Shown: one piece after another, positions 33,061 through 39,771 of the stretch | Position numbering within the stretch: the stretch's first letter is position 1 | How the letters are laid out: every line of letters starts with the position of its first letter | Assembly (NCBI GenBank): GCA_040376605.1 | Contig: JBEIQI010000001.1 | Location: 5,191 to 69,190 of the forward strand | Source: Flavobacteriales bacterium | Lineage (GTDB): Bacteria; Bacteroidota; Bacteroidia; CAIKAF01 | Direction of reading: 5' to 3' | Length of the DNA: 64,000 nt | The notes under the pieces: generated by a model | The model's input: only the letters and a program-made list of their open reading frames with translations | The model's database searches: none | Told to the model about the DNA's origin: nothing | Program-made: the position numbers and the translations under genes

Positions 33061-33090
33061 TTGGAAATTTGTTTTTATTATCTACATTTG
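33061..33090 (+). promoter_or_regulatory. Bacteroidetes promoter (-33 TTG, 19-nt spacer, -7 TAcaTTTG) driving the SAM riboswitch / met operon
   Basis: ttggaaatttgtttttattatctacatttg, with TTG at 33061-33063 and TAnnTTTG at 33083-33090. Confidence 0.5.
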
Positions 33091-33115
33091 TGACATCAAA
33101 CGACCTGTTACAAGG

Positions 33116-33258
33116 TAATTGATTTATAAAGAAGAGGTTAGAGACTGGCTCGTTGAACCTCTGGCAACCAACTATAAGCCCCGTTAATTCGGGTTGGAAA
33201 ACCGGTGCCAATTCCAGATTCTGCTACATATTGTATCAGAAGAATATAGATTGAGAAA
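33116..33258 (+). promoter_or_regulatory. SAM-I (S-box) riboswitch aptamer
   Basis: Contains the invariant SAM-I blocks ...AGAAGAGGTTAGAGACTGGCTCGTTGAACCTCTGGCAACC... (GGCAACC at 33163-33169) and GGTGCCAATTCC (33204-33215). P2 (GAGGTT/AACCTC), P3 and P4 hairpins can be drawn. It sits 5' of metY-metX-hom. Confidence 0.8.
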
Positions 33259-33558
33259 AATGAAAAAAACAAATCATTTAAGTCTAGAAAGCCAAACAAA
33301 AAAATTCTTTGGACAACATTTATTCTGTTGTTGTTGCTGTTTTAGCTGTTAAGATTTTACCATTTCTTCATTAACACCTTTAAAACTTTTACAACATCAT
33401 CATGAATACATATGTCCATGCGGAAGTATTTCAGTTAGAATCTGGCCATAAAATAGCTAGTGTTAATCTCATGCTCAATGGTATTTGCCGTCGCTAATAC
33501 GATATAAAAAATTTACATCATTCCTAATCAACAAAAAACCATTTTAAAACAAAAAACC

Positions 33559-34902
33559 ATGTCAACACAAAAATTACATTTCGAAACACTCCAGCTACAT
33601 GCAGGACAAGAGGTAGACCCAACAACCGGTTCAAGAGCCGTACCTATTTATCAAACCACTTCTTACGTATTTAAAGATTCGGAGCATGCCGCCCGGTTAT
33701 TTGGACTCAAAGAATTTGGAAACATTTATACCCGTTTAAACAATCCCACCACCGACGTTTTTGAAAAACGGATTGCGGCCCTGGAAGGTGGTGTTGCTGG
33801 GCTGGCCGTAGCTTCGGGTCAGGCGGCACAATTTATTGCATTAAACAATATTTTACAGGCGGGTGATAATTTTGTAACGAGTTCACATTTATATGGCGGC
33901 ACTTACAATCAATTTAAAGTAGCTTTTAAACGCCTGGGTGTTGAAGTACGTTTTGCTGATGGAATTGACCCTGTTTCTATTGAAGAGCGGATTGATGCCA
34001 ATACAAAAGCCATTTATATAGAAGCTATTGGCAATCCTGAATTTAGTGTGGCGGATTTTGAAAAAATTTCAAACATCGCCAAAACCTATGATATTCCATT
34101 GGTTGTAGATAATACCTTTGGTGCAGCCGGTTATATTTTTCGACCAATTGAACATGGAGCGGCCGTGGTTGTTGCCTCAGCCACTAAATGGATTGGCGGA
34201 CATGGCACCAGCATTGGAGGAATAATTGTTGATGCTGGAACATATAATTGGGGAAATGGGAAATATCCACAATTTACAGAACCTTCAGAAGGGTACCATG
34301 GGCTTGTATTTTGGGATGTTTTTGGAACCAACGGCCCATTTGGCAACATTGCCTTTGCTATTAGAGCCAGAGTAGAAGGATTGCGTGACTGGGGGCCTGC
34401 CATTTCACCATTTAATTCCTTCCTCCTGTTACAAGGCTTAGAAACCCTTTCATTACGTGTACAAAGAACAATAGACAATGCACTTGAACTGGCTACGTGG
34501 TTAGAAAATCAAGAGGATGTAGAATATGTAAACTACCCGGGACTAGCTTCTTCTAAATACAATTCTTCAGCTAAAAAATATTTAAAAAATGGATTCGGCG
34601 GAGTACTAAGTTTTAAAATAAAAGGGGGTGTTGAAAAAGCCAATGCATTTGTTAATTCACTTGAACTCATTTCACACCTAGCCAATGTTGGCGATTCAAA
34701 ATCGCTAATAATACATCCTGCCGCCACCACGCATGAACAATTAACTCAGGCAGAACAACTTTCTACAGGAGTGGTTCCAGGGCTCCTACGTTTCTCTGTT
34801 GGTATCGAACATGTGGAAGATTTAAAGGCCGACCTTTCCAAAGGGTTTACCGCTATACATGCTTTAAAGGCTGTGTTTACTGGCGATCTATCGAATCATT
34901 AA
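33559..34902 (+). CDS. metY: O-acetylhomoserine aminocarboxypropyltransferase (OAH sulfhydrylase)
   Basis: 447 aa, PLP Cys/Met-metabolism family. [24 protein letters not shown]..., PLP-lysine region ...[10 protein letters not shown]..., MetY-length C-terminus. Confidence 0.85.
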
Positions 34903-34950
34903 TGGTTGATAATAATAAAACTCTATAATAAATAATTAGCAAATGTAGGC

Positions 34951-37734: not shown

Positions 37735-37737
37735 ATT

Positions 37738-38163
37738 ATGAAAAAAATAATCAATTTTATTGTTTCCATTTTATTGGGAGCTGCTTTCGGAATAGTGCTT
37801 ATAGAGTCACAGGCAATTTCTTGGTATAGAATTCAGGAAATGTTTTATTTTCAGTCGTTCCATATGTATGGTTTGTTAGGTTCTGCTATTGCTACCGGTG
37901 CCTTAAGTATTTTTCTTATAAAGAAGCTAAAGGTTAAAAGTGTCTATAATAATACGGTTGTTGTTAAAGATAAACCACTAACTTGGAAGGCGAATTTGAT
38001 AGGAGGAATTATTTTCGGTTTGGGCTGGGGATTAACAGGGGCTTGTTCTGCACCGCTGCTAATTTTGGTTGGGTTATCATGGAAGTTGGGTTTAATTTTG
38101 TTGGGTGGAGCATTATTGGGTACTTTTATTTATGGAATATTAAAAAACAAACTTCCGCATTAA
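37738..38163 (+). CDS. YeeE/YedE family half-protein, C-terminal-type
   Basis: 141 aa, 4 TM, conserved GLGWGLTGACSAP loop. Abuts the upstream half-gene. Confidence 0.65.
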   Translation: MKKIINFIVSILLGAAFGIVLIESQAISWYRIQEMFYFQSFHMYGLLGSAIATGALSIFLIKKLKVKSVYNNTVVVKDKPLTWKANLIGGIIFGLGWGLTGACSAPLLILVGLSWKLGLILLGGALLGTFIYGILKNKLPH

Positions 38164-38164
38164 T

Positions 38165-38584
38165 ATGAAATTAATTTTAGAAAGGATAAATAGTAAAGTG
38201 GCTTTTAAATCCACCAACGAATTCGGTACAGCGGTTCAAATTGATGGAAGTGAATCGGCAGGGGGTGAGGGCCTGGGCCTGCGCCCAATGGAATTGTTAG
38301 CTACGTCTTTGGCTTCTTGTCTTAGCATTGATATTTTACTAATTCTAAAAAAAATGCGAATTGAGCCCATTAAATATGAAGTTCATATTCAATCAAAACG
38401 CAAAGATGCTGTTCCATCATCATTCGAATCAATTCATTTAACTTTTGTGGTTGATAAAAATGATCCTAGAGAGAAAATTGAAAAAGCGATTCAATTAAGT
38501 TTGGATAAATATTGTTCGGTTGCCGCAAGCCTCTCCAATGAAATAAAAATTAGCTTTGATGTAATCACACCAAAAAAATTATAA
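38165..38584 (+). CDS. OsmC/Ohr family thiol protein
   Basis: 139 aa. Two conserved Cys in OsmC-like positions (LATSLASCLSIDI and DKYCSVAASL). Confidence 0.65.
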   Translation: MKLILERINSKVAFKSTNEFGTAVQIDGSESAGGEGLGLRPMELLATSLASCLSIDILLILKKMRIEPIKYEVHIQSKRKDAVPSSFESIHLTFVVDKNDPREKIEKAIQLSLDKYCSVAASLSNEIKISFDVITPKKL

Positions 38585-38589
38585 AGTAA

Positions 38590-39771
38590 ATGAGCAAAAA
38601 ATATTTAAAGAATGCCCATAAGGAAACTTTGGCCATTCGAACACATATTCTAAGAACTAATCAAAAGGAACATTCCAATCCATTGTTCCTTACCAGTAGT
38701 TTTACATTTGACACGGCCGAAGAAATGGCAGCTGTATTTGCTGATGAGATCCCAGGAAATATTTATTCACGATATTCAAACCCCAATGTTCAAGAGCTTA
38801 TAGATAAGGTGTGTTTATTAGAAAACGCAGAAAGCGGATGGGCTACTTCCTCCGGTATGGCTGCTGTATTTACTACATTTGGTGCATTATTAAAATCAGG
38901 GGATCATATCGTTTCGAGCCGATCTGTTTTTGGATCAACACATCGATTATTCACAGAAGTATTTCCTAAATGGGAGGTTTCTACGACATATGTGGATGCA
39001 TTAGATTATGAAGGATATAAAAATGCTATTCAACCAAATACCAAAATTTTATATTTAGAAACCCCTTCAAACCCGGCGTTAGAAATTATTGATATTAAAA
39101 CGGTGGCTAAAATTTGTAAGAAGGCAAAAATACTTTTCGTAGTGGATAATTGTTTTGCAACACCTATATTACAGCGACCGCTTGATTTAGGAGCAGATAT
39201 CTCCATTCATTCAACTACAAAATTTATGGATGGCCAAGGAAGAACGCTTGGTGGATTGATTTTATCAAACTCAAAAATTATCAAAGAAATTGAAGGATTT
39301 GCTCGCCATACCGGGCCGGCATTAAGCCCGTTTAATGCCTGGATCATTTCTAAGTCAATCGAAACTTTACATATACGTGTTGAAAGAATGACCGAAAATG
39401 CGTTGGTGATTGCAAAAAAATTAGAAAAGTATCCCAAAGTAAAATGGGTTAAATATCCATTTTTGCCAAGCCATCCTCATTACAAAACTGCGAAAAAGCA
39501 GATGTTTGGAGGAGGCTCTATTGTTACATTTGAAATAAAAGGTGGATTAAAAGCAGGCCGTCAATTTTTAAATAAACTTCAGCTATTTTCATTAACTCCC
39601 AATTTAGGGGATGCCAAAAGTATTGCTACCCATCCGGCATCTACGACCCATTCGAAATTAAAGCCGGAGGAGAGAAATGCCGTGGGTATTTCCGATGGTT
39701 TGGTTAGATTATCCATCGGTCTTGAACATTCTAATGATATTTGGAAAGATATTTTACAGGCCCTATCCTAA
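38590..39771 (+). CDS. PLP-dependent O-succinyl/acyl-homoserine sulfhydrylase or cystathionine gamma-synthase (MetZ/MetB-like)
   Basis: 393 aa. Cys/Met-metabolism PLP family (...YSRYSNPN..., ...HSTTKFMDGQG... PLP-Lys, ...RLSIGLEH...). Confidence 0.8.
   Translation: MSKKYLKNAHKETLAIRTHILRTNQKEHSNPLFLTSSFTFDTAEEMAAVFADEIPGNIYSRYSNPNVQELIDKVCLLENAESGWATSSGMAAVFTTFGALLKSGDHIVSSRSVFGSTHRLFTEVFPKWEVSTTYVDALDYEGYKNAIQPNTKILYLETPSNPALEIIDIKTVAKICKKAKILFVVDNCFATPILQRPLDLGADISIHSTTKFMDGQGRTLGGLILSNSKIIKEIEGFARHTGPALSPFNAWIISKSIETLHIRVERMTENALVIAKKLEKYPKVKWVKYPFLPSHPHYKTAKKQMFGGGSIVTFEIKGGLKAGRQFLNKLQLFSLTPNLGDAKSIATHPASTTHSKLKPEERNAVGISDGLVRLSIGLEHSNDIWKDILQALS

Follow-up and report, generated by a model that had tools for sequence, protein, structure and literature searches.

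Salmonella mgtA carries a Mg2+ riboswitch together with the proline-rich mgtL, and protein-borne sulfur donors are exemplified by the CysO thiocarboxylate, used with CysM in Mycobacterium, and by HcyS, used with MetY in Wolinella. In Bacteroidota, promoters follow the TTTG/TAnnTTTG consensus, and translation initiates without Shine-Dalgarno pairing, requiring open, A-rich RNA upstream of the start codon. Riboswitch control in this phylum is poorly understood because initiation is not Shine-Dalgarno-based. Published systems that come close include mycobacterial poly-Cys short open reading frames (ORFs), on which stalled ribosomes open a structure masking the next start (Canestrari et al., bioRxiv 10.1101/834739), M. 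tuberculosis ppe2, in which a B12 riboswitch controls a translated upstream ORF (uORF) needed for the main gene (PMC11260477), and the cysS upstream ORF in Rhodobacterales, which is among the closest (PMC8632094). Here we analyze a 64,000-nt stretch of a Flavobacteriales bacterium (the window; assembly GCA_040376605.1, contig JBEIQI010000001.1, positions 5,191 to 69,190 of the forward strand), in which an S-adenosylmethionine (SAM)-I riboswitch aptamer precedes a methionine operon. The operon runs on the + strand in the order aptamer, metY-metX-hom, two halves of a split YeeE transporter, an OsmC-like gene, and a MetZ-like gene, and a short Cys-rich leader ORF lies directly behind the aptamer. 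We consider it reasonably probable that two sensors in series, the SAM aptamer and the Cys/Met leader, control this operon, and that the OsmC-like protein is the partner of the MetZ-like enzyme.

A leader ORF behind the SAM-I aptamer

The region upstream of metY contains the following features (window coordinates):

33060-33090, + strand: candidate Bacteroidota-type promoter, read from the sequence; TTTG at 33060-33063, a 19-nt spacer, and TACATTTG at 33083-33090
33121-33252, + strand: SAM-I (S-box) aptamer, RF00162; 57.0 bits against a gathering threshold of 44.4, E = 1.6e-10, model positions 1-108 of 108
33260-33352, + strand: 30-codon leader ORF, MKKTNHLSLESQTKKFFGQHLFCCCCCFSC, whose ATG follows the final nucleotide of the aptamer by 7 nt; proposed expression platform
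33317-33407, + strand: predicted long hairpin; 5' arm 33317-33352, 3' arm 33370-33407
33402-33497, + strand: 31-codon ORF, MNTYVHAEVFQLESGHKIASVNLMLNGICRR; relic of an ancestral metX 5' end, from BLASTP against MetX of the related locus L001

RF00162 was the sole Rfam family matched by cmscan in the window, and the aptamer stands in the 5' leader of methionine genes on their own strand. Aptamers of the same subtype scored 55-69 bits in the 16 related loci that were checked. An earlier note on this DNA had placed a SAM-I aptamer at 33116-33258 and had suggested a cmscan run with RF00162 as a check; that run confirms the aptamer and delimits it to 33121-33252. The platform behind it is not of the classical kind, in which a terminator or a start-sequestering helix competes with P1: instead, the leader ORF lies 3' of P1. 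A consensus scan of 32800-40200 returned no intrinsic terminator pattern between aptamer and metY (33253-33558), in agreement with the earlier note, which had seen no clean terminator there. The same note had described the interval as about 300 nt of AT-rich sequence and had called the platform unclear, translational or Rho-dependent. Its length estimate holds (306 nt) and the direction was reasonable, but the interval is not featureless, since it holds the leader ORF and the metX relic, and the conserved Cys/Met leader had been overlooked.

Six Cys residues fall among the last nine codons of the leader ORF, and among ORFs of 12-80 aa on either strand of the window it is the only one with at least four Cys or Met residues (Cys/Met) in its last ten. 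For comparison, we assembled 80 genome loci retrieved with an OsmC profile and 75 metagenome loci retrieved with a 22-mer specific to the aptamer subtype. The same layout recurs in two relatives reached through OsmC homologues, in which the aptamer is followed by MEQHIYLTNLRIRTASSGQGFCFACMCL (L001) or MKKQFHFIGKPKSIGKSLFLDLKKSISKNQICTCCMCC (L003) and then by metX. A closed ORF of 25-70 codons at the leader position, with at least four Cys/Met in its last 12 residues, is present in 61 of the 88 distinct leader regions, and 48 of the 88 reach at least six. The background comprised 8672 six-frame ATG ORFs of that size from the same loci, the leaders themselves included in the counts; 101 of them (1.2%) had at least four and 0.6% had at least six Cys/Met. 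The enrichment of Cys/Met tails (61/88 against 1.2%) has a binomial p of ~1e-96. Tails among relatives end, for example, in ...THCCCCCCCC, ...SACCCCMCCCCMYC, or ...GMMMQRTRCCGTC, and the leader of the cultured strain Taishania pollutisoli CZZ-1 (L019) ends in ...CVMCCC. When the + strands of 82 loci (~1.4 Mb) were scanned for small ORFs with at least five Cys/Met in the last ten residues, 12 were recovered, all of them just upstream of met operons.

The position and evolution of these ORFs are equally regular. Nearly all relatives have the leader ATG 7-14 nt 3' of P1. The N-terminus of the peptide drifts freely among members of a subgroup, whereas its frame, length class, and tail persist, and the leaders of close relatives differ by in-frame indels (9 nt between L017 and L095). 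Because the N-terminus drifts while frame, length class, and Cys/Met tail are retained and indels stay in frame, the leader ORF bears the marks of a regulatory leader peptide, the informative part of which would be the run of Cys/Met codons. An attenuator is expected to be a short ORF rich in codons for the end product, with its regulatory codons kept while the remaining peptide varies, and both features are seen here. We propose that the leader ORF is a putative sensor of charged tRNA for Cys (for Cys and Met in relatives).

The tails might also arise without attenuation. The riboswitch could act by itself, through Rho or a translation block, with the UGY/AUG tract serving as an RNA element, or the Cys-rich peptide could have a job of its own, as a metal- or sulfur-binding peptide or as a precursor resembling those of ribosomally synthesized and post-translationally modified peptides (RiPPs). 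Short peptides with a Cys-rich C-terminus do exist as natural-product precursors. In some subgroups part of the peptide is kept (e.g. ..YLSNKSVLVT..), UGC/AUG repeats are self-complementary and form hairpins alone, and no universal alternative RNA structure was found. Against these options, the frame opens at an AUG whose distance from P1 is fixed, continues for 28-64 codons although the DNA is rich in AT, has only in-frame indels, and stops 0-3 codons after the Cys/Met run. Enrichment is limited to the two sulfur amino acids, the end products of the pathway, and the N-terminal part is unconserved between subgroups. The next genes are always metX, metY, or cysH, never a maturase or exporter, and a RiPP precursor was rejected on that ground. 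We therefore regard an explanation without attenuation as unlikely.

The leader is a portable module that is able to occur without the aptamer, as shown by two loci, L043 and L049, whose poly-Cys leaders are among those 12 ORFs and have no riboswitch before them. These leaders (L043 4070-4144, ending in ...GVMCCCCCCC; L049 5511-5585, ending in ...GMMYCCCCCC) lie directly 3' of a promoter-like TTTG/TATATTTG. The cmscan search upstream of them was empty, and the distance from hisIE to the leader ATG is only 76 nt. The leader peptide, MNKITHRLSFIAPIGVMCCCCCCC or MTHIKQHHSSITSNGMMYCCCCCC, is followed by cysH (PF01507)-osmC-metZ-metX-hom.

The aptamer, in turn, can be combined in related bacteria with either a terminator or a leader ORF, since metH loci of the type found in L140 use a terminator and have no leader. 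In L140 (4251-4432), the same aptamer subtype is followed by a GC-rich hairpin and a T-run, and controls metH, which encodes a 1213-aa B12-dependent methionine synthase. Three further loci (L110, L117, and L153) resemble it in having the aptamer and a classical terminator without a leader.

Upstream of P1, a TAnnTTTG motif lies within 75 nt in 35 of 73 distinct related loci, and we infer that TTTG...TACATTTG is a candidate Bacteroidota-type promoter driving the operon. NCBIfam holds no model for the leader peptides. The searched literature, whose coverage was incomplete, yielded no description of a Cys/Met leader ORF that follows an S-box riboswitch or occurs in Bacteroidetes, which is absence of evidence only.

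A metX relic and RNA structure downstream of the leader

The second feature in the interval, the 31-codon ORF MNTYVHAEVFQLESGHKIASVNLMLNGICRR, aligns with residues 5-34 of L001 MetX with 13 identities in 30 positions (BLASTP, E = 1e-7). Most relatives have metX immediately after the leader, and homology shows the ORF to be what is left of a metX start that predates the insertion of metY. In this lineage, metY and an intact metX were placed behind the old metX start, which explains why the spacer between leader stop and metY is unusually long (206 nt). The relic may now serve as a second upstream ORF, and its start codon is still the target of the hairpin that contains the Cys codons.

The 5' arm of this predicted hairpin comprises the last 12 leader codons and the stop, Cys codons included, and the 3' arm comprises the relic metX AUG (33402) and the 30 nt before it. 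RNAduplex gives a pairing energy of -17.8 kcal/mol (z = -4.7 against 300 shuffles). With RNAfold, the segment 33300-33405 folds at -15.1 kcal/mol (z = -1.6), and the whole 481-nt leader has a z of -0.74, which carries no information.

Elsewhere, different structures occupy the equivalent position. Nine marine loci have in common a hairpin, AUGAUGC...GCAUCAU, in which the Cys codons and the stop are enclosed, with a U-rich tract behind it, a terminator-like arrangement. Freshwater metY-first loci have other hairpins. The spacer after the leader is poor in G (C 19.4% against G 12.4%, with C exceeding G in 43 of 48 loci; C 19.9% against G 10.2% in the window), a composition compatible with Rho loading, for which it is weak evidence.

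In metY-first operons we also observed a hairpin, its loop containing the palindrome GGGCCC, in the stretch from leader to metY. Its distance from the leader stop is 41-49 nt (117 nt in L102, for which another ORF served as reference). It occurs in L013, L090, L096, L098, L102, L105, L109, L111, L116, L120, L139, L144, L145, L151, and L159. Its stems vary yet stay complementary (ATC/GAT, TTCC/GGAA, CCA/TGG, TGTC/GACA, GTCTC/GAGAC, and CTGAC/GTCAG), covariation that was assessed by eye. The hairpin matches no Rfam family and is not present in the window.

Several of these results weigh against the attenuation reading. Pairing between the Cys/Met run and the next start, as predicted in the window, is not general across relatives (mean z = 0.11). 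The run pairs with the next 45 nt only weakly above shuffles when all loci are taken together (mean z = -0.37, p = 0.03), and no single RNA structure 3' of the leader is kept across the whole family. The marine hairpin is invariant and therefore shows no covariation. The UGY/AUG repeats are partly self-complementary, so that the signal could partly be RNA-structural and not coding. In the window itself, the hairpin would unmask the relic ORF, not metY, and a link to metY needs an extra step, either Rho or coupling across 61 nt. Finally, Cys/Met tails are weak or absent in about one quarter of the related leaders (L018, L094, L102, L115, L125, L152, and L156), and in L107, L112, and L123 the leader runs straight into metX.

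The OsmC-like protein as a partner of MetZ

The second part of our reading concerns the genes of the operon:

33559-34902, + strand: metY, O-acetylhomoserine/O-acetylserine sulfhydrylase; TIGR01326, 657.4 bits against a cut-off of 495.1; PF01053 match
34951-35970, + strand: metX, homoserine O-acyltransferase; TIGR01392 (324 bits) and NF001209 (296 bits), both below cut-off; PF00561
35972-37219, + strand: hom, homoserine dehydrogenase; PF00742 and PF03447; NF004976, 326 bits against a cut-off of 205
37243-37734, + strand: PmpA-like YeeE half; PF04143, 58.8 bits against 27, profile positions 175-309 of 310; positions 272-327 of the TsuA profile NF052577
37738-38163, + strand: PmpB-like YeeE half; PF04143, 34.0 bits against 27, profile positions 10-101; positions 4-93 of the TsuA profile
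38165-38584, + strand: OsmC-like two-Cys protein of the YhfA/TM0919 type; PF02566, 78.3 bits against a gathering threshold of 27.5, E = 6e-22; Cys52 and Cys117
38590-39771, + strand: MetZ-like pyridoxal 5'-phosphate (PLP) enzyme, acyl-homoserine sulfhydrylase; PF01053, E = 3e-134; NF006003, 515.7 against 522; TIGR01325, 494.4 against 510.05

In 65 of the 80 OsmC-profile genome loci, the OsmC-like gene is immediately followed, on the same strand, by a MetZ-like gene (62 found by script and three with overlapping genes); 14 have none, and one is cut off. The 65 pairs span Flavobacteriales, Cytophagales, Chitinophagales, Sphingobacteriales, and Leptospiraceae. At 71 distinct OsmC-MetZ junctions, the median gap is 14 nt; 34 junctions are 10 nt or shorter, and many genes overlap by 4 nt. 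The riboswitch-anchored operons are modular, with the general order [metY]-metX-hom-[yeeA-yeeB]-osmC-metZ, and in this set an OsmC-like gene and a MetZ-like gene go together with L127 as the sole exception. Since operons with MetY only (L145, L151, L155, and L159) lack an OsmC-like gene, the link is to MetZ and not to the two sulfhydrylases generally. A homologue from Solibacillus (41% identity) has no PLP neighbour, so the association is a trait of a subclade and not of all YhfA-like proteins. On this genomic association, the OsmC-like protein is a conserved, dedicated partner of the MetZ-like enzyme. In L127 (3081-5856), metX and hom are broken into several short ORFs and the OsmC-like gene has no metZ after it; the locus gives the impression of a methionine operon in decay.

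Gene fusions and other neighbourhoods point in the same direction. An exhaustive HMMER search yielded a natural OsmC-MetZ fusion, P0151 (533 aa; L165 6001-7602), with an OsmC domain at residues 1-137 and a Cys/Met-metabolism PLP domain at 150-531 that is 56% identical to the MetZ-like protein of the window; it is a single instance on one 165-kb metagenome contig. The same search also recovered a rhodanese-OsmC fusion, P0212 (230 aa). In Sporocytophaga, the osmC-metZ pair lies beside sulfite reductase, sirohaem, and rhodanese genes, and in L043 and L049 it lies behind cysH. No Rfam riboswitch was detected at Rfam thresholds upstream of osmC-metZ pairs outside Flavobacteriales. The pairs without one upstream (L048, Crocinitomix catalasitica, and L041, L062, L074, L022, and L023) come from cultured Crocinitomix, Cytophaga, Pseudochryseolinea, and Mucilaginibacter, and from metagenome-assembled genomes (MAGs) of Sporocytophaga and Leptospiraceae.

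The protein itself has the OsmC fold and two conserved Cys in addition to its PF02566 score. The AlphaFold2 model is confident (predicted local distance difference test 95.6), with a template modelling score of 0.83 to 1VLA. Its closest structures are TM0919 (1VLA), Aq_1549, and E. coli YhfA (PDB 1VLA, 2EGT, and 1ML8), and the nearest solved relatives (1VLA, 2E8C, and 1ML8) are structural-genomics entries without an assigned activity. The YhfA equivalog NF008009 was the best NCBIfam match, below its cut-off (63.9 against 138 bits). Across 60 homologues, Cys52 and Cys117 are invariant and the RPxE motif is invariant or nearly so. It is plausible that the protein serves MetZ in a sulfur or redox capacity. 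Most likely, the protein would act as a dithiol/persulfide relay or as a reductase, a reading that fits its two-Cys architecture and its sulfur-assimilation neighbours.

The MetZ-like enzyme is best matched by the MetZ family, and its closest PDB entries are O-succinylhomoserine sulfhydrylases (9IQH and 3NDN). Its PLP-lysine motif, HSTTKF, aligns with HSATKY and YSGTKH of solved MetZ enzymes. A MetZ cysteine specific to the OsmC-associated clade was considered as a further clue and discarded, because the candidate, in the DNCF motif, is also found in 9IQH and is uninformative.

An ordinary thiol peroxidase or antioxidant, protecting the PLP enzyme, homocysteine, or sulfide without transferring sulfur, would share many of these properties. 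The protein is a PF02566 member with the two Cys and the RPxE motif of the family, its fold matches OsmC/Ohr peroxidases, and its nearest solved structures are uncharacterized. A generic antioxidant would not be expected, however, to track MetZ and not MetY across phyla, to overlap the MetZ start codon and once be fused to MetZ, to have relatives fused to rhodanese, or, in other lineages, to follow cysH or adjoin sulfite reductase genes. We consider this explanation doubtful. Some points count against our own reading as well: neither adjacency nor a single fusion can establish a chemistry for the OsmC-like protein, its active-site Arg/Glu/Cys pattern is shared with the peroxidases of the family, and the MetZ-like enzyme falls slightly below both MetZ equivalog cut-offs (NF006003 and TIGR01325).

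The earlier note had put the OsmC-like protein in the place of the TusA/YeeD partner of the split YeeE, handling imported thiosulfate or persulfide for both sulfhydrylases. E. coli YeeE-mediated uptake does require YeeD (PMC11073785), the OsmC-like gene adjoins a YeeE half here with a 1-nt gap, rhodanese-OsmC fusions exist, and the 64-kb window contains no YeeD/TusA-like ORF with a G-x-x-C-P-x-P motif, although such a gene could lie elsewhere in the genome. The distribution of the genes speaks for MetZ as the conserved neighbour: MetZ-like genes pair with the OsmC-like gene in 65 of the 80 genome loci, whereas YeeE halves precede it in only 10. About half of the riboswitch-controlled osmC-metZ operons have no YeeE halves, and an OsmC-like gene next to YeeE halves without MetZ was never seen. 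The MetY-only operons speak against a service to MetY and MetZ alike. A substitution for TusA/YeeD is, in our judgement, unlikely. The broader idea of that note, which assigned the OsmC-like protein to the incorporation of sulfur into homocysteine, is supported by its standing as a closely coupled core gene of the met operons and by the MetZ and rhodanese fusions.

A link between the OsmC family and MetZ, homocysteine, or methionine synthesis was not found in the searched literature; coverage was incomplete and this is absence of evidence only. A Pelagibacter paper that names osmC and metY was set aside, as both appear only in a table of intergenic regions.

The operon and its neighbourhood

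The locus is a homocysteine/methionine-synthesis operon of a Crocinitomicaceae-like member of the Flavobacteriales. Its closest named relatives are Crocinitomicaceae and Fluviicola MAGs, and several metagenomes contain near-identical contigs. The methionine operon with its riboswitch is real and in itself ordinary, and gene coordinates and family assignments given in the earlier note agree with the ORF list and the family matches. Its statement that gaps after metY are 20 nt or less does not hold: from metY to the MetZ-like gene they measure 48, 1, 23, 3, 1, and 5 nt, two of them longer than 20 nt. MetY itself exceeds the TIGR01326 equivalog cut-off, and metY is an optional module present in only some of the related operons.

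The two transporter genes correspond to a full-length YeeE in reverse order, the first being the C-terminal and the second the N-terminal half. By TsuA profile position, Cys122 of the first half corresponds to TsuA Cys293 and Cys103 of the second to TsuA Cys91, and the halves resemble each other weakly in the region of the Cys motif. Adjacent complementary halves with PF04143 scores and one conserved Cys each are what defines the half-size PmpA/PmpB type, which is already known (PMC11582611), so that the split layout here is not new. Scores of 41.7 and 25.3 bits fall far below the TsuA equivalog cut-off of 400. Relatives of PmpAB have been reported to import zero-valent sulfur besides thiosulfate (PMC11582611), and the importer here, an optional add-on of these operons, would by family membership bring in one or the other.

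Two further gene groups flank the operon. A 445-aa ORF without a Pfam or NCBIfam match (39808-41145, - strand) is convergent with metZ at a distance of 36 nt. On the other side, genes at 29012-32951 (- strand), divergent from the met operon, encode an ethanolamine-permease-like transporter (TIGR00908, above cut-off) and an enzyme of the glutamine-synthetase family (below all equivalog cut-offs); in relatives, a third gene of this group encodes an iron-type alcohol dehydrogenase. The divergent genes may form a small amine-utilization cluster.

Proposed mechanism and implications

From the geometry of the leader, SAM binding would form P1 7 nt 5' of the leader AUG and hinder loading of the 30S subunit on the leader; because Bacteroidota need open RNA upstream of the start, a SAM-stabilized P1 should hinder leader initiation. 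At low SAM, the leader would be translated. If charged tRNA(Cys) or tRNA(Met) were then scarce, the ribosome would slow on the Cys/Met codons and keep the RNA 3' of the leader open. The RNA opened in this way would be the start-masking hairpin in the window and, in other lineages, a terminator-like hairpin or a G-poor spacer of the Rho-loading kind. By analogy with published attenuators and in view of the lineage-specific structures, ribosome occupancy of the Cys/Met run would prevent premature termination or start-site masking. Transcription and translation would continue into the operon, as in the mycobacterial poly-Cys attenuators and Salmonella mgtL/mgtA.

In the pathway so controlled, MetX and Hom would make O-acyl-homoserine, which MetY and the MetZ-like enzyme would each convert to homocysteine. 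The OsmC-like protein would hand sulfane sulfur to MetZ, or resolve a mixed-disulfide or S-sulfo product. In chemical terms, the OsmC-like protein might carry a persulfide on one Cys that attacks the intermediate bound to PLP, or it might reduce an S-sulfo or persulfide product, with the second Cys resolving the mixed disulfide.

For the composite leader and for the OsmC-like/MetZ module, the comparative evidence is strong as to existence and weak as to mechanism. We put forward only tentatively, and as a doubtful whole, the joint proposal that a SAM-I aptamer gates a Cys/Met leader in Flavobacteriales lacking Shine-Dalgarno initiation, integrating SAM with charged tRNA(Cys)/tRNA(Met), and that a YhfA-type OsmC protein is the obligatory dithiol/persulfide partner of MetZ. 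If it is true, homocysteine synthesis in much of Bacteroidota and in Leptospiraceae uses protein-bound or sulfane sulfur and not free sulfide, and the YhfA-type OsmC subgroup gains its first function. Structures from this YhfA/TM0919 branch were solved some 20 years ago and have lacked a function, for which the MetZ partnership offers a specific biochemical hypothesis. It may also explain the coexistence of MetZ and MetY, if their sulfur donors differ.

An ORF at the foot of P1 is a concrete and testable platform for Bacteroidota riboswitches, and it would constitute a natural device with two inputs, SAM and sulfur-amino-acid charging, both read within a single leader. As the leader is abundant in freshwater and marine Flavobacteriales, it bears on how common heterotrophs sense their sulfur supply. 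The 306-nt "spacer" also shows that standard gene calling misses short regulatory ORFs and gene relics.

Comparison with known systems

The locus shares its four-helix aptamer, its place in the 5' leader of methionine genes, and the expected OFF logic with classical SAM-I riboswitches that use a terminator and antiterminator (RF00162, e.g. Bacillus met genes). It differs in that no terminator or antiterminator stands next to P1 and a short ORF begins 7 nt after it, although the same aptamer subtype in related bacteria does use a GC-hairpin and T-run, upstream of metH. Mycobacterial poly-Cys attenuators likewise have a short upstream poly-Cys ORF before sulfur operons, and their mechanism matches the hairpin predicted in the window. 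Those ORFs, however, are leaderless and stand alone, whereas the present one follows a SAM aptamer and belongs to another phylum, one without Shine-Dalgarno use. Cys and Met codons are here mixed at the extreme C-terminus, and stand-alone versions occur in L043 and L049. With mgtA/mgtL and ppe2, the leader has in common a ligand-sensing RNA and a short ORF in one transcript leader, and thus two signals, with translation of the uORF deciding downstream expression; the ligand, the codon signal (Cys/Met), and the phylum differ.

The split transporter shares PF04143, the C- and N-terminal halves, and the cysteines matching the essential Cys293 and Cys91 with YeeE/YeeD (TsuA/TsuB) and PmpA/PmpB; in contrast to YeeE/YeeD, it has no YeeD/TusA-like gene nearby and scores far below the TsuA equivalog cut-off. 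With OsmC/Ohr peroxidases, and the YhfA/TM0919/Aq_1549 subgroup among them, the OsmC-like protein has in common the fold, the two conserved Cys, and the RPxE motif, whereas its conserved MetZ-like operon partner and the occasional fusion to a MetZ-like or rhodanese domain set it apart from the family in general. In CysO/CysM and HcyS/MetY, a small protein is likewise encoded beside a sulfhydrylase and could deliver sulfur in place of free sulfide. CysO and HcyS, however, are ubiquitin-like carriers that end in a GG thiocarboxylate and depend on an activating enzyme, whereas the present protein has a two-Cys OsmC fold and its operon encodes no activating enzyme.

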